This document shows, piece by piece, positions 33,508-42,152 of a DNA stretch of 64,000 bases. This stretch comes from Ignavibacteriota bacterium. GTDB lineage: Bacteria; Bacteroidota; Ignavibacteria; Palsa-1295. The notes beneath the pieces are model-generated. The model saw only the letters and a list, made by a program, of their open reading frames with translations, searched no databases and was not told the DNA's origin. Each line of letters opens with the position of its first letter. The first letter of the stretch is position 1. The stretch covers positions 1,760,001 to 1,824,000 of the forward strand of contig CAWBEI010000002.1 in assembly GCA_963787835.1 (NCBI GenBank), read 5' to 3'. The translations under genes were made by a program, and so were the position numbers.

Positions 33508-35610
33508 TCAATATTCCACTGGCTTCCGCATCGAATCCACTCGCGGAATCGGTTGTGTTACAGAAAGAGAATCATGTTTTGTGGTATCGACGGGTAGCGG
33601 AGCGCCGGGATAGCTCGCATTGAAGTATTCTATTTTTGGCCGGAGCGCATCGTAGGCATATTTCATAAAAAGTCCCCAGATGGGCGCTGCGGCGCGTCCG
33701 CCCTGACCGTTCGAACTATTGAAAGTGATGCGCTTATCGTCGAAGCCAACCCATACGCCGGCAGTATATTCCGGCGTGTAACCGACAAACCAGGCATCGG
33801 CATAATTCTGGGTAGTTCCCGTTTTGCCGGCAGCAGGATAGCGGAAATAATTTAATACCCGAATTCCCGTTCCATGCTGAACTACATCTTCCAATGCTGA
33901 TGTGATTTCATGGCAGATCTTCGGATCGAGCACATTCTCTAACTCGGGTTTTCGCTCGTACAGAATTTTCCCATTCCGATCCTCCACGCGCATGATCGCG
34001 TAGGGCATTGCGCGAACGCCTTCATTTGCAAACACGGAATATGCGCTCGTGAGATCGATCGGACTCACTTCCGCAGTTCCCAACGCGATAGAGGGATAGG
34101 GCGGTATCGGTTGTCGAATGCCGAGTCGGGCTGCCATTTTCACGACATCTTGAACGGAAGTTAATTCCTGAATCGCATGCACCGCTGAAAGATTGAGCGA
34201 TTGCTCGATCGCATAGCGAATGCTGACCGTCCCGCCGGATGCTTCACCCGCGAAATTCTGCGGCGACCACGAGCCAAGATGGACCGGTTCGTTGGATACG
34301 CTGGATTCCGGCGTTGCGCCATGCTCGAACACGGAAGCATACACGATCGGCTTGAATGACGATCCCGGCTGACGTACGATCTGCGTTGCGTGATTCAGCC
34401 CATAGCGTACATCCTGATAATTCGATGCGCCGACCATTGCCACGATCTGTCCCGTCGATTGATCGATGCAGACAAGCCCCGCTTGCAATAATAGTTCTTC
34501 ATCCTTTACGCTATCGACAAAATCCTTATTTGCATAGAATTCACGCGCCACCTTTGCGCGCTCGACGTCCGACGAAGCGGAACGGTATTCCAGCGTATGA
34601 TGCACTGCTTTCATGAGCGCCGTATCGAGGATACCTTTGTGGCGTGCCCAGTTCCATCCTTTATTTACGTAGTTCTTTTGGTAGTCTGCAATGTGTTCGA
34701 GCACCGCGCGGTTCGCGGCGCGCTGCATGGTGGCATTCAGTGTGGTATAGACCACAAGTCCGTCACGGTAAATATCGTAGCCTTGCAGCTCCGGCATTTT
34801 CTGCAATTGTTGGCGCACCATTTCCGCAAAGTGCGGTGCAATACCCTGGTAGCCGAGATACTCTTTTACCTTTAAAGCATCTTTTTTAATCTTTGCTGCC
34901 TCTGCCTCGGTAATAAATCCCGCATTTACCGTATTATCAATGACTGTATTCCGCCGATTGATGGCGTTGTCGTAATCATCATCAGGATCGTAATTCTCCG
35001 GGCCTTTGAGAATGCCAACGAGATACGCGGACTGTGCTGGCGTCAGCTTATTAACATCCTCGCCGAAATATGCCTGACTTGCGGCCTCGATTCCATACGC
35101 ACCTCGCCCGAAATATGTGACGTTGAGATACATTTCCAATATCTCATTTTTCGTATGCGCGCGTTCGATCTGAACGGCTGTAATAGCTTCGCGTAATTTG
35201 CGAATGACGGTTTTATCCTGATTGAGATACAGATTCCGCGCAAGCTGCTGCGTAATGGTGCTCGCTCCTTCTTTGGCATGAAGGCTGAATAGGTCGGTAA
35301 CTATTGCGCGAAGATTGCCCCACAAGTCTAGTCCCCAGTGGTGATAGAACGTTCGGTCTTCCGTGGCAATAAGCGCCTTGATGAGGAACGGTGGGACGTT
35401 CCTCAGATGAATATTTGTCCGGTTCTTGATAAAGAACTGGTCGATCGGCTCGCCATCGGTAGAGATGATGCGTGTCGCAATTTCCGGATGCGGCGTAGCT
35501 AATTCCTCCGTGCTCGGCAGCCCGCGCGAAATATCCCACCACAGAAAGGCAAGAAATGCGACGAGAGCCGCAAGGGCAATGTAAAGATTACGACGACGTT
35601 TGGTCATCAC
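33508..35610 (-). CDS. Penicillin-binding protein 1A (transglycosylase/transpeptidase)
   Basis: [27 protein letters not shown] (SxxK), SLN, KTGT. Confidence 0.93.
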
Positions 35611-37073
35611 ACAGGCGACGAAAGCCTCTCTTGAATGTAACTCTTAACCGCACTCATTGCCACGCGCACCTGCTGCATTGAATCCCGTTCCCGGATGGTG
35701 ACGGTCTGATCGTTCAGCGTATCGGAATCAATAGTAACGCAGAATGGCGTACCGATCTCATCCATGCGGCGATAACGGCGCCCGACCGCGCCCGATTCAT
35801 CGTAGAATGACTTCATCGACTTACGCAGATCGCGCTCAAGCTCATTGGCAAGTTCCGGCATTCCATCTTTATTCACAAGTGGGAACACGGCAACTTTTAC
35901 CGGCGCAAGAAAGGGATGCAAACGCAGCACCACGCGTTGTTCGCCATTTACTTCTTCCTCTTCATAGCCATTGCAGAGAAAGGCCATGAAGCCACGCGAG
36001 GCTCCAGCGGCAGTTTCAACGACGAATGGCGTGTATTTCTCTTTCGTCTCCTCATCGTGAACTTGCAAGCTCTTCCCGGAAAACTCCTGGTGCCGCGTGA
36101 GATCGAAATTCGTGCGGTTATGAATGCCTTCGATCTCGCCGAAGCCGAACGGGAACTCGAACTCGATGTCGCCGGCAGCCTTTGCATAATGCGCGAGCTT
36201 TTCGTGCGGGCGGAAACGGAGTTTGCTCTCTGGCATTCCTAATGAGCGCCACCAGTTCCAGCGCGTTTCGCGCCAGGATTCGAAGAATGCATCGTCCGAG
36301 CCTGCTTTGCAGAAGAACTGCATTTCCATTTGCTCAAACTCACGAGTACGGAAGAGGAAATTCTTTGTATTGATCTCATTCCGGAAGGACTTCCCGATCT
36401 GGCAAATACCGAATGGAATTTTCTGCCGTGAGGACTGCATCACGTTCAGAAAATTTACGAAAATTCCTTGTGCGGTTTCGGGGCGGAGATAGACGACATT
36501 CGAATCGTCCTTTACTGGTCCAACATACGTCTCGAACATCAAATTAAAACTGCGTGGAACGGTAAACGTCTTTGTTCGTCCGCAATTGGGGCAGGGGATT
36601 AATTCTTGCTCGACCAGGCTTCCAAAGATGGAATCATCCTGCTCGATCGTGCCGGTGACGAGTTCTGCGAGCTGCTCTTTTGTAAAATCTCGCGTTTCGA
36701 GGGCGAGCGATTTCGTGATCGCTTTCAACTTTTTCTCCGACATTTCTGCAAAAAGATGATCCACGCGATACCGCGATTTGCACTCGCGGCAATCGACCAT
36801 CGGGTCGGAGAAATTCTGCACATGGCCGGATGCTTCCCACACTTTCGGGTGCATGAGGATCGATGCGTCAAGACCCTCGATGTCGCCGCGCTGGGTCATG
36901 GCGCGCCACCAGGCGTCCTTGAGATTGCGCAGCATCTCGACTCCGAGCGGACCGTAATCCCAGCAGCCGTTCAAGCCGCCATAAATTTCGGACGATTGAA
37001 AAATAAACCCCCGCCGCTTCGCTAGCGATACGATCTTCTCTAATAATTGCTGTGATGGTGTTGATTGAGCCAC
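35607..37073 (-). CDS. glyQS: Glycine--tRNA ligase (alpha2 type)
   Basis: [57 protein letters not shown]. Confidence 0.96.
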
Positions 37074-37080
37074 TTTGTAT

Positions 37081-37111
37081 AGTAACGAGTTATGAGTACC
37101 GAGTAACGAGT
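37081..37111. repeat. Heptamer tandem repeat in the glyQS leader
   Basis: agtaacg agttatg agtaccg agtaacg agt. Confidence 0.75.
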
Positions 37112-37135
37112 GGGGGCGGGAATGTCATTCCCCAA

Positions 37136-37179
37136 TTATCTGAACCTGGATGACGCGGATGGGAGCGGATGACGCGGAT
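37136..37179 (+). repeat. GGAT-periodic repeat copy A
   Basis: ttatctgaacctGGATgacgcGGATgggagcGGATgacgcGGAT. Confidence 0.92.
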
Positions 37180-37229
37180 GGCTCGGGAATGAACTGTCAT
37201 TTCGAGCTAAGCAAGCGCGGTTTCACACA

Positions 37230-37373
37230 TGTCATTCCGAGCGGAGCAATTCATCGCGGAGCGATGGTTTGCGTAGTCGAGGAATCTCTGTCAGTTGGCC
37301 GGAGATCTCTCTACTCCGCAATTCTCCCAGCATCGTCGGCGATGCGGGTCGAATTGCTCCGCTCGGGATGACA
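37230..37373. repeat. Long palindromic element (tgtcattccgagc...gctcgggatgaca type)
   Basis: tgtcattccgagcggagcaattc ... gaattgctccgctcgggatgaca inverted arms with internal hairpins. Confidence 0.82.
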
Positions 37374-37445
37374 TGGAAAGATGACATAGGCAAAATGAAC
37401 GCCCTAAGTAACCTTTCTCCTATTTTGGGGTTTTTAATGATCGCT

Positions 37446-38309
37446 ATGCTTCGCTTCAAAGCATTTTCGATAATTCGATTCCTTGTTTTAGGAAGTGTAT
37501 TCCTTTTCTCTCCACTCCACGCGCAGGATTTACAGCAGTGGAAGCCGAACGTGGGGGATCGGTTTGAGTGCCTAATTAGCCACAATATTAATTGTGGAGA
37601 TTATGAGTGTACCGGAATAGATACCGTCCTATTTGAGATCACAGACACAGCATATGATGGTGATACCCAACATCCTGATGCAGTATTTGCGACAACGAGT
37701 GCCATCGGGCTACACCTCACATACTATGAGTGGGGACAAGGGTACGACTCAATTGGCCAGATAGGACATAATTATAATGTTAACACCCTTATTTCGTCGC
37801 CGAGTGCCCAAACGCTTGAAACATCATTTAATGGCGCAAGTGTCAATTATAATAGCTGGATGGAAATTCCATTTATTCGCGATACATCTATAGTATTTCA
37901 GGGTGTGAATTATCAAGGTTCTTTGTCGGCTGCGGGAATGTTTCTGCCTAAGTTGGGATGGTTCTTCTCCCTGACCGGGAACGAGTATGGAAATATTTGT
38001 TACCCCTGTTTAGAGGGAACTTGGACGATGGCGCTCATTGCGGCTTCGGGACCTTCGGGTGTTCAAGTAGATATCCCTTCGAATTCAATGGTATTTTCGG
38101 AGGGTTCCTTTTTGCAACTTGTAAACATTGAAGCCAATAAAATAATGTTAATGGATTTGGTTGGGCGAATCGTAAACGCATGGCAATTTCCATCATTCGG
38201 CCATCGCGATATTACTCTGAATGTTGCAGATGTGCAGAGCGGTGTGTATTTCCTGCAAATCTCCGCGCCGGGTGTGGAGGAGATGCGGAAAGTGGTGATC
38301 GTGCATTAG
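37446..38309 (+). CDS. T9SS type A sorting-domain secreted protein
   Basis: Signal peptide; LMDLVGR...SGVYFLQI...RKVVIVH. Confidence 0.8.
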   Translation: MLRFKAFSIIRFLVLGSVFLFSPLHAQDLQQWKPNVGDRFECLISHNINCGDYECTGIDTVLFEITDTAYDGDTQHPDAVFATTSAIGLHLTYYEWGQGYDSIGQIGHNYNVNTLISSPSAQTLETSFNGASVNYNSWMEIPFIRDTSIVFQGVNYQGSLSAAGMFLPKLGWFFSLTGNEYGNICYPCLEGTWTMALIAASGPSGVQVDIPSNSMVFSEGSFLQLVNIEANKIMLMDLVGRIVNAWQFPSFGHRDITLNVADVQSGVYFLQISAPGVEEMRKVVIVH

Positions 38310-38313
38310 GCTG

Positions 38314-38358
38314 TCTGAACCTGGATGACGCGGATGGGAGCGGATGACGCGGATAGTT
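38314..38358 (+). repeat. GGAT-periodic repeat copy B (left IR of the GxxExxY gene)
   Basis: tctgaacctggatgacgcggatgggagcggatgacgcggatagtt. Confidence 0.92.
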
Positions 38359-38405
38359 GGTTGAAGGTTGAGCATTTATTTGATATTTAATTTTGATGTG
38401 ACTTA

Positions 38406-38810
38406 ATGGGCCATGACTTTGAGGACAAAGAACTTACGGAGGCAATAATCGGATGCGCCATGAGAGTGCATTCGAAATTGGGGTGTGGCTTTCAGGAAGT
38501 TATTTACCAGCGCGGCTTGGCTATCGAGCTTCGAAGACTCTCCATAAATTTCGAACGAGAATTTGAAATGCCTATTGATTACGACGACGAGAATATTGGC
38601 TCACGCCGCGTGGATTTCCTGATTGAGAATCGAATATCGGTCGAACTTAAAGCATTGGCAGAATTAGAAGACATCCATCTTGCTCAAGCCAAAAATTATC
38701 TTGAAGTATATAAATTGAGAGTAGGACTGCTCATCAACTTCGGCGGCAAACGATTAGAATTCAGACGATTAATAAATTCCAAAGCGCCACATAGACGAGA
38801 GCTGAAGTAA
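38406..38810 (+). CDS. GxxExxY protein (PD-(D/E)XK nuclease-like fold)
   Basis: VHSKLGCGFQEVIYQ (GxxExxY), RRVDFLIE...VELKA, AQAKNYL, GLLINFG. Confidence 0.92.
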   Translation: MGHDFEDKELTEAIIGCAMRVHSKLGCGFQEVIYQRGLAIELRRLSINFEREFEMPIDYDDENIGSRRVDFLIENRISVELKALAELEDIHLAQAKNYLEVYKLRVGLLINFGGKRLEFRRLINSKAPHRRELK

Positions 38811-38858
38811 TAGGCAAATACACAATTGTTTAAACGCAAAATCCATAAGATCCAACAA

Positions 38859-38906
38859 AACTATCCGCGTCATTCGCTCCCATCCGCGTCATCCAGGTTC
38901 AGATAA
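38859..38906 (-). repeat. GGAT-periodic repeat copy C (right IR)
   Basis: Reverse complement ttatctgaacctggatgacgcggatgggagcgaatgacgcggatagtt; one mismatch to B. Confidence 0.92.
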
Positions 38907-39499
38907 TGAAACTCACTTACGCCGAAATCCAGCATCAGCGTCTTACCGAAGAAGCCGCAGCCGCAAGCACCAACCGCCTTCCCGTTATTGCGATCCTTGA
39001 AGATATTCGCAGTCTCTACAACGTCGGCTCCATCTTCCGGACTGCCGATGGCGCGCACCTTGAAGCGATCTATACCGTCGGCTACACTCCGCATCCGCCA
39101 CGCAAGGAGATCGATAAGACCGCGCTGGGCGCAACGCGGACGGTGCCGCATAAGCATTTTGAGACTATAGAGGAAGCTGTTGCGGCGGTGCGGTCGGGGA
39201 ACCACCCCCGCGCATCGTCGACGATGCTTGCCCCCTCCTATTCCGCTTCGCTGCATAGGAGGGGGAGCTTTAAAGTAGCATCCCTTGAGATCACTTCCAA
39301 CAGCCGATCCATTTTTGAGTTGAAGAAAGAGGATTTCCCACTTGCTCTCATTATTGGGAATGAAATTACTGGAGTGAGCGATGCCGCTATTGGGCTTTCG
39401 GATTTCACGCTGGAGATACCGATGCTGGGAGCAAAACACTCGCTGAATGTTGCGGTGGCCTTTGGTGTGGCGGCATTTGAATGCGTGAGGGTTTATTAA
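38906..39499 (+). CDS. TrmH/SpoU-family RNA methyltransferase with an in-frame palindromic insertion
   Basis: ILEDIRSLYNVGSIFRTAD, IDKTALGA, IIGNEITGV, EIPMLGAKHSLNVAVA. Confidence 0.9.
   Translation: MKLTYAEIQHQRLTEEAAAASTNRLPVIAILEDIRSLYNVGSIFRTADGAHLEAIYTVGYTPHPPRKEIDKTALGATRTVPHKHFETIEEAVAAVRSGNHPRASSTMLAPSYSASLHRRGSFKVASLEITSNSRSIFELKKEDFPLALIIGNEITGVSDAAIGLSDFTLEIPMLGAKHSLNVAVAFGVAAFECVRVY
39200..39268. repeat. Palindromic repeat inserted in frame in the coding sequence
   Basis: aaccacccc-gcatcg tcga cgatgc-ccccctcctat...ataggaggggg-agc; 69 nt. Confidence 0.75.
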
Positions 39500-39502
39500 G
39501 TG

Positions 39503-39541
39503 AACCCTCACCCAGCCTCTCCCCCATGCTGGGAGAGGAGA
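39503..39541 (+). repeat. ccctcacc..cctctccc..gggagagg palindromic repeat / possible terminator
   Basis: accctcacccagcctctcccccatgctgggagaggag. Confidence 0.6.
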
Positions 39542-39587
39542 AGAAAAAAATAGTTGATGTTTTTTTTCGTATTTTTGGAGGTCGTCA

Positions 39588-42152
39588 ATGCCTTATTTTT
39601 CTATGTTCATGAAAAAAGAATTCTTTTTGGTCGGACTTTTTCTTTTAATTTCCAGTATTTCCAGTATTGCCAGTGCGCAGTGGCCCGCTGAGGGTGGGCT
39701 TGGCGGTTCGCCTGGAAACGGGGGGATGATACGGCAGCCCATGCCCGATGCCCCGTTAGTCAAATCCATCCCTCCGTTCCTTAAAGGCAACCAAACGCTG
39801 GCGGAAACGTGGAGCTCTACCATTGCAGCGTTCGGCAATAACCCAGACGGGATGACTGTTAATTGCTTTGCCGAAGATAGTGACAATCTCTATGTCGGCG
39901 GAGATTTCCTCAAATTCGATACAGTCCATACACAATTTATCGCCGGCTATAATCGAAAAACAGGATTGTGGTACGCACTCGATGCGGGTCTCGATAATGA
40001 CGTCCTTGCAATGGTCATGCATAATGGGAAGCTGTATGTTGGCGGATCGTTCAACCATGCGGGCAGCGGAGATAGCGTAGTCAATTACATCGCCATGTGG
40101 GATGGAACGTCATGGCATTCCCTTGCCGGAGGAATGAATGCTCAGGTGAACGCACTGGCTTTTATTGGCGACACGCTTTATGCCGGAGGTGATTTTACAC
40201 AAGCGGGTGGGAATTCCACCTCCTTTCTTGCATTTTGGGATGGCGCCTCATGGAACGAAGCTTCGATGGGAACTTCGTACCCCGTTCAAGCACTCTGTGC
40301 CACTCATGACAGCCTTTTTGTGGGAGGGAGTTTTCGGTATGTCGGGTCAGAAAGGAATAATAATGGCATCGTGGCCAATGGAACTGCAATGGTAAGAAAT
40401 GGAATCTGGACCGCTTTTGGACCAGGCTATAATAATTCCACGCTTGCGTTTTTTAACGGCAAGCTATGGGCGGGAGGACAATACTTTGCACTGGCTGATA
40501 ATAGCCTTACTGTAAATGGGATTGCCTATTGGGATGGATCGAACTGGAATGCCGTCTCTTCCGATACGATGGTTGGAATTGGAGGAGGCCAGGTCAATCA
40601 ACTCACTGTCCTTGGAGATAGTCTTATAGCCCTCGGCGAATTTAGTATGATGGACGGCGTTCCTGCGATGAATGCAGCGGTCATGCACAATGGAGCATGG
40701 TCCGAGCTTGGTGGAGGAATATATGGCTTTTGCAACGCAGCTATTTCCTTTAACGGGAGTCTCTATGTTGGCGGAGAATTCACAAAAGCAGGAACGGTAA
40801 GCGCTATGGGAATAGCATCGTATGCCAATGGCAGTTGGACCCCTTCTATACCTGCAGATCTTTTTTACAATGAAGTCGGCTGGCAGTCCGCAGAAGTTCG
40901 GGCAATCGCAACGACCGCTCGCTATGTGTTTATCGGCGGGAACTTCGTTTCGATCGCTCATCAGCCATGCAATCATGTCGCAGCCTACGATAAACAACTC
41001 GGTCAGTGGATCCCGCTTGGAGCCGGAGTAGATGGCACTGTCCGATCCCTTGCTGTTTCGGGAAATACCCTGATCGTGGGAGGAGAATTCACGCAGGCTG
41101 GAACAATTCCCGCGCGTCATATTGCGGAGTGCAATATTACTTCAAAAATATGGTCCGCGATGGGTGCAGGCGCATACCGGAGCGTCAATGCCTTAACCGT
41201 CGATTCCAAAGGGATGATCTATACTCCGATTTTTAATCCTTCTGTCAATAATATCTATTACGATGATATTGGTGTATGGGATGGGACTGGCTGGTCGCAA
41301 TTTGGCAATGGACTAAACTCCGGTTTTATCGATGCGATCACATGGATACAGGACACCTTATATGCTGTAGGTTCTTTCTCCCGAACGGACGATGGAACGA
41401 TCGTAAACGGAGTTGCCCAACTTCAGAATGGAATATGGGGTTCACTGAATGGTGGCCTTAATGCTGAAGCATATACTCTTACCGCTTCTGACAATAATCT
41501 ATATGTTGGCGGGGAATTTACTGAAGCAGACGGACAAGTCGATTCCGCGTTAGCCCTGTGGAATAATCAGACTCAGGAATGGAATCCCATCGGCGCGGCA
41601 GGATTCGATGGCCCGGTTCTCGCACTTGCTTCAGATGGCAATGGAGGCGTCTATGCCGGCGGCGAATTCAGCGAAGTTGCTCAAGTGGGTCGCGGCAATC
41701 TCGTTCATTGGAATGGCTCGGCTTTCGGGACGGTCGCTTCGGGCGTAAATAATACCGTTGCATCATTAGCCACCGATGAGAGTGCCCTTTATCCAGGAGG
41801 CTGGTTTACGGAAGCAGGGAGCACTACAAACACCAGCCTTCACTTCGGTGCGCTCGATGGAGCGGGAGCGAGCGTAAGCATTTCGCCATCGCCGGATGTG
41901 GCTTCTTTTTCTATATATCCCAATCCGGCTACTGGATCTTCGACGATCTCGGTTGATCTGGTTAAGGCTGGCAATATTCATCTCGAAGTATTTAACGAGC
42001 TTGGCGATCGGGTGCTGCTTATTGCGAAGGGAGTGTATCAGGCCGGTCCGCAAGAGTTCACACTTGATGCCTCGAAGCTGATATCCGGCATCTATTTTCT
42101 GCGGCTGACGAATGATGGAGTCAGTAGTATGGAAAATTTTGTGGTGCAGTAG
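39588..42152 (+). CDS. Large T9SS-secreted beta-propeller repeat protein
   Basis: Repeated LYVGGxFTxAG / WDGxxW units; IYPNP...SGIYFLRL CTD. Confidence 0.85.
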   Translation: MPYFSMFMKKEFFLVGLFLLISSISSIASAQWPAEGGLGGSPGNGGMIRQPMPDAPLVKSIPPFLKGNQTLAETWSSTIAAFGNNPDGMTVNCFAEDSDNLYVGGDFLKFDTVHTQFIAGYNRKTGLWYALDAGLDNDVLAMVMHNGKLYVGGSFNHAGSGDSVVNYIAMWDGTSWHSLAGGMNAQVNALAFIGDTLYAGGDFTQAGGNSTSFLAFWDGASWNEASMGTSYPVQALCATHDSLFVGGSFRYVGSERNNNGIVANGTAMVRNGIWTAFGPGYNNSTLAFFNGKLWAGGQYFALADNSLTVNGIAYWDGSNWNAVSSDTMVGIGGGQVNQLTVLGDSLIALGEFSMMDGVPAMNAAVMHNGAWSELGGGIYGFCNAAISFNGSLYVGGEFTKAGTVSAMGIASYANGSWTPSIPADLFYNEVGWQSAEVRAIATTARYVFIGGNFVSIAHQPCNHVAAYDKQLGQWIPLGAGVDGTVRSLAVSGNTLIVGGEFTQAGTIPARHIAECNITSKIWSAMGAGAYRSVNALTVDSKGMIYTPIFNPSVNNIYYDDIGVWDGTGWSQFGNGLNSGFIDAITWIQDTLYAVGSFSRTDDGTIVNGVAQLQNGIWGSLNGGLNAEAYTLTASDNNLYVGGEFTEADGQVDSALALWNNQTQEWNPIGAAGFDGPVLALASDGNGGVYAGGEFSEVAQVGRGNLVHWNGSAFGTVASGVNNTVASLATDESALYPGGWFTEAGSTTNTSLHFGALDGAGASVSISPSPDVASFSIYPNPATGSSTISVDLVKAGNIHLEVFNELGDRVLLIAKGVYQAGPQEFTLDASKLISGIYFLRLTNDGVSSMENFVVQ

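Follow-up and report, generated by a model that had tools for sequence, protein, structure and literature searches.

The window, a 64,000-nt stretch of the genome of an Ignavibacteriota bacterium, contains a small GxxExxY gene and a gene for a secreted protein with a T9SS tail between a glyQS-type glycyl-tRNA synthetase gene and a trmH/SpoU methylase gene, along with three copies of a phased repeat that we term arms A, B and C (Table 1). On alignment, A (37139-37179) is a direct repeat of B (38314-38354) identical over 41 nt, while B (38314-38358) matches C (38859-38903) in inverted orientation at 44/45 nt; the GGAT units start at positions 10, 19, 29 and 38 of the arm. The original prediction of three repeats, a B/C inversion with one mismatch and four GGAT units at steps of 9-10 nt was thus accurate. 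B begins 5 nt past the stop codon of the T9SS gene, and the trmH start codon lies 2 nt beyond the end of C. The 590 bp of B..C hold the GxxExxY gene as their sole ORF, which, as also anticipated, is AT-rich (GC 0.43 vs 0.52 for glyQS and 0.54 for trmH); the T9SS gene lies in between (0.45). No flanking target duplication is visible at either A..C or B..C in the source genome, again as first described. The inverted match of A with C reaches 45 nt by including extra outer bases (37135-37179/38863-38907), which had been read as the ends of a larger unit; however, ATCT precedes 13 of the 93 arms found genome-wide, and outer bases so common among arm copies are therefore no marker of A..C as a unit. 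The cassette unit is B..C, not A..C.

Table 1. Genes and repeats of the glyQS-trmH region (positions in the window)
Feature	Positions	Strand	Remarks
glyQS-type glycyl-tRNA synthetase gene	35607..37073	-	Divergent upstream neighbour
GAGTAAC-type heptamer run, short	37080..37110	+	Third repeat family of the glyQS spacer
Arm A	37139..37179	+	Solo left-type arm, same sequence as B; not established as an element end
GTCATTCC-type hairpin element	37228..37375		Outside the cassette; resembles the arms of the genome's small GIY-YIG (Ssn-like) genes
Gene for secreted protein with T9SS type A tail	37395..38309	+	Profile matches; start codon uncertain
Arm B (left arm of cassette)	38314..38358	+	TCTGAACC, then four GGAT units at spacing 9-10-9
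GxxExxY/PDDEXK_3 gene, 134 aa, predicted PD-(D/E)XK fold	38406..38810	+	HMM, alignment, structure model
Arm C (right arm of cassette)	38859..38903	-	Inverted relative to B
trmH/SpoU methylase gene	38906..39499	+	Downstream host gene; defines the junction

The glyQS spacer is a pile of three repeat families, which likewise argues against A..C as a unit: the palindrome that the original prediction had counted as part of A..C resembles another family, the arms of the genome's GIY-YIG genes, and the GAGTAAC-type heptamer motif has 21 matches in the genome. Four small GIY-YIG genes of the source genome (G000; C2:1473150, 1244874, 1221612 and 1256678) each lie inside GTCAT-type inverted arms as Ssn/SRM-like cassettes, and a further small GIY-YIG gene (G000:C5:67020-67214) is flanked on one side by a tRNA gene and on the other by a direct copy of 56 nt from the 3' part of that tRNA gene. 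Straight after the trmH stop codon there is a hairpin of yet another family (CCCTCACCC...CCTCTCCC...GGGAGAGG; window 39500-39545; 7 genome matches), followed by a gene for an 854-aa T9SS-secreted beta-propeller protein (39588-42152; Rax2 and DUF5122 matches) that is kept in most loci of the genus. An Rfam scan of 36500-40000 returned no match, and promoter and terminator scans stayed at chance level.

The GxxExxY protein matched PF13366 (PDDEXK_3; 128.8 bits vs a cut-off of 22, E 1.7e-37), the only Pfam family to do so, and TIGR04256 (GxxExxY; 131.6 bits vs a cut-off of 35), and its predicted structure (pLDDT 92.7) has the PD-(D/E)XK fold, which bears out the initial family and fold assignment. 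The top Foldseek match was Cas4 SSO0001 (E 8e-5, TM 0.54); a wider fold search recovered restriction-like nucleases (Z at most 7.6; best BpuSI, Z 7.6, rmsd 3.5 over 97 residues), with TnsA absent among the fold matches listed, and a PDB sequence search with the protein gave nothing significant (best E 0.75). Across 57 aligned homologues, a set that excludes 2 loci with a stop inside their range, E31, D70, K82 and Y98 are invariant and E80 and Q94 almost so; a QxxxY motif is a feature of RecB/Cas4-type nucleases. As modelled, the protein is a PD-(D/E)XK superfamily member, nearest to Cas4, with its putative catalytic residues conserved. The gene is under purifying selection (dN 0.045, dS 1.0 against the orthologue in the related genome G002). 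Its closest homologues come from records of Candidatus Kapaibacterium or Bacteroidetes, and GxxExxY genes were found in 33 of the 41 genomes searched.

The arms belong to a family dispersed across the genome. The arm core matched the 3.57-Mb genome at 50 places, compared with 3 and 1 in two shuffled controls, so that the arms are not due to chance, and a broader arm pattern gave 93 matches vs 0-1 in three shuffles. Many arms form inverted pairs of about 90-270 bp that enclose no gene, with one pair sitting between convergent genes, and many others are unpaired. Their placement is tied to gene ends: 42/93 begin between -8 and +20 nt from a same-direction stop codon, as against 3.3% of intergenic positions, and in many of them the TGA of TGAACC is itself the stop of the upstream gene. 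All 3/3 GxxExxY genes of the source genome are bracketed by arms, the other two, one between pyrH and frr and one between livK and livH (liv names by sequence reading), each with its own variant; the gene of the window has 62-64% DNA identity to these two. Arm A is best explained as one dispersed arm copy. Elsewhere (G000:C2:823307-825055) an MFS-like transporter gene lies between a gene-less arm pair and a third arm at a distance of 1.65 kb, the outer flanks of the two right arms being similar, in a layout that parallels A-B-C; two further gene-less pairs (G000:C3:416999-417089 and C6:212981-213135) directly follow tRNA-like genes.

The association of gene and arms extends well beyond this genome, in keeping with the original proposal, against which a general lack of inverted repeats at GxxExxY loci would have told. 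Among 111 distinct GxxExxY loci spanning many phyla, in a sample that leans toward close relatives, 87 had an inverted-repeat score of at least 30 (69 of at least 40), compared with 5/300 random positions and 21/300 mismatched flank pairs; 24/111 loci scored below 30. The 111 were drawn from 121 loci by leaving out 2 with no hit, 2 with a short flank and 6 duplicates. Within the genus all 34/34 loci analysed reach the threshold (37 matches, less 3 fragments). Most of the distant proteins (30-46% identity) also have phased arms, built from other units such as CACAGAG, CACGGAT, CGCAAAG and GCGAAT. The left and right arms of one locus have a median score of 67.5 against each other, as against 24 for arms of other sites in the same genome. 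The co-variation of protein and repeat that had been predicted is present, with a rho of 0.58 between arm and protein similarity over 57 loci and 0.26 between different sites within the genus, a correlation that could follow from shared descent alone.

We read by eye the junction classes upstream of trmH in 15 genomes of the genus. The full cassette is there in 3/15 (G000, G002, G005); in 2/15 (G004, G008) the slot holds arm pairs of a different subtype with no gene between them, and 7/15 have unrelated hairpin families, which in G007 surround an ORF that we take to resemble a Y1 transposase. No hairpin was noticed in 3/15. With the gene in this slot in 3/15 genomes, the locus is not fixed among relatives, as the original proposal would require. 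Orthologous operon junctions vary in the same way among sister genomes, which hold GxxExxY-type arms, GTCATTCCCGCG hairpins, heptamer arrays, GTAGGG-type hairpins or nothing; genus-wide, such junctions, including that upstream of trmH, are a shared slot that is rapidly refilled. The GxxExxY gene itself is present at pyrH-frr in 4/15 genomes, at livK-livH in 4/15 (junction resolved in 12) and at no fewer than 9 junctions among the 15; the genomes have 0-6 matches each, and 2/15 (98% and 85% complete) have none. The proteins cluster by site, with related proteins also at different junctions (68 sequences kept, 5 with in-frame stops skipped), and at one junction G024 has a distant GxxExxY lineage with other arms.

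Filled and empty states of one junction can be compared directly at several sites. Empty alleles occur in G000 at an ATGA overlap (C2:578930) and a TAAATG (C2:116060) where relatives have a cassette, and in G011 at the livK-livH overlap; likewise, G002, G006 and G014 have a 4-nt spacer where G000, G005 and G009 hold gene-less arm pairs, that of G009 being of a different subtype. No target duplication is evident at these filled/empty pairs, the compared genomes being 14-27% diverged. At four other gene-less sites, comparison with 3-5 relatives recovered other arm subtypes or repeat families at the same junctions. Arm B has an identity of 40/41 to G002 and 38/41 to G005; between G000 and G002 the arms are identical at 40-41 of 41 positions while the gene dS is 1.0. 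Gene dS at shared sites ranges from 0.6 to saturated, with the host gene frr in the same range, and given such values and no near-identical copies at two sites, no recent move is seen. By these divergences the cassette is old at the glyQS-trmH site. Movement appears old and rare for the gene and more frequent for the arms. The protein matched 8/72,556 plasmid records and 0/50,697 phage records, as is expected of a RAYT-like rather than an IS-like gene. Four DNA sequencing runs yielded only short low-depth contigs, with no joint for excision, inversion or A-B deletion.

If the protein were the driver, repeats and gene lineages should go together. Judging by copy numbers, the arm subtypes appear to peak in genomes with the matching gene lineage, clearly so for CTATGAT and weakly for ACGCG; as kin are not independent, we read these counts as indications. 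CTATGAT arms number 20, 12, 9 and 6 in the four genomes in which the matching protein clade occurs, whereas each of the other eleven has 0-4. TTATGG arms number 18, 23, 16 and 7 in the four genomes that have an frr-clade gene and 0-9 elsewhere; the group test (P 0.002) included two genes assigned by their arms, is therefore partly circular and was not relied on. For ACGCG, the subtype of the window itself, the gene-repeat link is weak (P = 0.06), with 40 arms in G009 and 25 in G006 (80% complete), both of which have no gene of that clade. Moreover, the arms can bracket other genes. One such locus (G000:C2:202187-202744), between convergent yebC and aminotransferase genes, contains a GNAT-like acetyltransferase gene (so labelled by sequence reading) and no nuclease inside GxxExxY-type arms; both arms are present in G000 and G010, the left arm and the GNAT gene in G002, and a 46-bp empty spacer in G008. 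This GNAT gene makes a stronger case for cargo than the T9SS gene does. Similarly, genes for four-helix-bundle proteins (PF05635) lie within inverted heptamer arrays (AATTACG, GGATAGT, TTAAGAA; G000:C2:1266714, 1157272, 1462729; C6:714, 66029), at operon or tRNA junctions and, as far as seen, none in rRNA. Since GNAT and four-helix-bundle genes are bracketed too, bracketing does not prove that the enclosed gene is the driver.

The original prediction saw in A..C a 1.77-kb mobile unit with the secreted protein gene as cargo. The inverted A/C match, the identity of A and B, the higher AT content of the T9SS gene than of its neighbours and the existence of a foreign gene (GNAT) between arms all fit such a composite element, but the T9SS gene occurs between glyQS and trmH irrespective of A..C: in G005 with B..C but no arm A, in G006 with a 22-nt remnant of A and no B..C, and in G009 with no arms of the GxxExxY type at all. 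The source genome has no second copy of this gene beyond one weak match, and A..C includes an unrelated hairpin family. In G002, furthermore, the cassette directly follows glyQS, the T9SS gene is gone, and the left arm has the upstream flank of A and the downstream flank of B, just what a deletion between direct repeats would leave behind. Because G005 falls outside the clade of G000, G002, G006, G014 and G009 in the host tree (support 100), it is simplest to take the T9SS gene as ancestral, and its loss in G002 would most likely have come about by recombination of arm A with arm B. We accordingly rejected the cargo element on the distribution of the T9SS gene, the copy search and the G002 deletion, and regard it as very improbable; the T9SS gene appears to be a resident, fast-diverging gene rather than cassette cargo. 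Of the solo repeats and cargo originally envisaged, solo arms and gene-less pairs do exist, whereas the T9SS cargo does not stand. In another reading, which builds on the RNA loop-out originally suggested, base pairing of B with C in the operon transcript would place the upstream stop beside the downstream start or form a processing stem like that of 23S intervening sequences. The predicted B/C stem is stable (-218 kcal/mol, z -6.7), as that of any long inverted repeat would be, the lone B/C mismatch is a G-U on the sense strand, the arms adjoin stop and start codons, and they are most alike within a locus. Yet across 69 loci the sense-strand mismatches comprise 80 G-U vs 81 A-C (P = 1.0), with loci split 22 to 22, and without a G-U excess there is no sign of selection for a one-strand duplex; the same wobble test gave no support for a strand-specific ssDNA hairpin either. 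Given also the many unpaired arms and the pair between convergent genes, we think RNA pairing quite unlikely as the basis of the arrangement.

With arms present about 90 times in the genome and around most related genes, the nuclease-fold protein likely spreads its own repeats. We lean towards a reading in which the protein recognises arms of its own type, cuts them and thereby seeds gene-less arm pairs, the gene moving only rarely. The phasing of GAT every 9-10 nt would present repeated binding sites, cutting would fall near the conserved TCTGAAC outer end, and host repair would transfer copies of arms, or of the cassette as a whole, to stop/start junctions with no target duplication; the TGA of the outer end can serve as the stop of the upstream gene, which would let insertions survive. 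The logic has published precedents in Ssn/SRM (PMC11893778) and RAYT/REP, nuclease-plus-repeat systems whose mode of action the cassette likely shares, though with a Cas4-like fold. Alternatively, the gene may be a passenger or domesticated, the arms having been spread by host recombination, by another enzyme or long ago, and GxxExxY being retained because it serves the host, for example by cutting incoming arm-bearing DNA, as Ssn does in transformation. Strong purifying selection and long residence, the clustering of proteins by site, the scarcity of plasmid and phage matches, the GNAT gene inside the same arms and the unrelated hairpin families at the same junctions in sister genomes all favour this reading, for which the available part of the Ssn account provides a precedent (PMC11893778). 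The tracking of the resident gene clade by CTATGAT counts, the occupation of at least 9 junctions within one genus and the 2/15 genomes with no match speak against it, and we consider it unlikely. Going further than self-seeding arms, GxxExxY could be the mobilising enzyme of undescribed 0.5-0.6 kb elements, a proposal that we put forward tentatively and with some doubt: a 134-aa Cas4-like protein would read helically phased GAT arrays, insert arms or entire cassettes at stop/start junctions without target duplication, be able to take along passengers such as GNAT, and compete for operon junctions with the repeat families of Ssn, RAYT and four-helix-bundle genes.

Several known systems resemble the cassette in part. 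Insertion sequences with MITEs have terminal inverted repeats around one ORF and short derivatives. The GxxExxY cassette likewise has inverted repeats around one ORF and short derivatives, but it shows no hit to a known transposase family, no visible target duplication and no near-identical copies, and its arms diverge between sites; nor did we find the near-identical copies and the cargo travelling with its ends that mark a composite transposon. ORF-bearing 23S rRNA intervening sequences hold a small ORF inside a long inverted repeat; the cassette, however, lies between protein genes rather than in rRNA and has no RNA-pairing signature. Closer in organization are the Ssn/SRM (NTS) repeats, which, in the part of their description available, comprise a small single-domain nuclease gene flanked by a cognate dispersed repeat, with paired repeat and protein variants and a proposed origin as a domesticated mobile element (PMC11893778; Chenal et al., 2025). 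Like these, the cassette combines a small nuclease-fold gene with its own dispersed repeat in paired variants. However, as far as that partial account goes, Ssn is a GIY-YIG enzyme with a self-complementary 20-50-nt hairpin, whereas the cassette protein is PD-(D/E)XK and each arm, a phased GAT array, is not itself palindromic and can pair only with its inverted partner. The GIY-YIG genes of the source genome are separate from the GxxExxY gene and have other arms, and the cassette has no single-domain GIY-YIG protein of the kind that defines Ssn. REPtrons/REPINs with RAYT and TIRtrons with TIRYT, as portrayed in the accessible portions of their reports, have a gene that is present in few copies, passed on mostly by vertical descent and enclosed by terminal inverted repeats, together with gene-less doublets dispersed between genes, and are rare on plasmids (PMC3733652, PMC5581495). 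To that extent the cassette agrees with them in its inverted repeats, dispersed family, 0-6 matches per genome, site clades and rarity on plasmids, but they encode an HUH Y1 tyrosine transposase, as opposed to a PF13366 PD-(D/E)XK protein with other invariant residues. The different enzyme fold places the cassette in neither Ssn/SRM nor REPtron/TIRtron. TnsA and Rpn/YhgA, described in the available text as PD-(D/E)XK proteins of other Pfam families linked to mobility (PMC3424549, PMC5350276), share the superfamily and on that description show that the fold can serve transposition or recombination; the accessible part of the former source lists PDDEXK_3 as of unknown function with multiple transfers and mentions no repeats. 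Our literature search, outside subscription papers and supplements, found no GxxExxY-repeat link, GxxExxY appearing only as a passing label in the papers listed, and the available part of the paper on TAACTGA heptamers has no mention of PDDEXK, endonuclease or helix bundle (PMC4679880). The gene-plus-arm cassette is real and general, and appears to be undescribed.

The arms provide a candidate substrate for the very common GxxExxY family, and the lineage subtypes provide specificity controls, which makes that function directly testable. The Ssn precedent, to the extent described in the part of the source at hand, indicates that small nuclease-repeat pairs can be new site-specific enzymes (PMC11893778). 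If true, the proposed activity of GxxExxY on its own arms would explain both why operon junctions turn over so rapidly and where a large class of phased intergenic repeats comes from.
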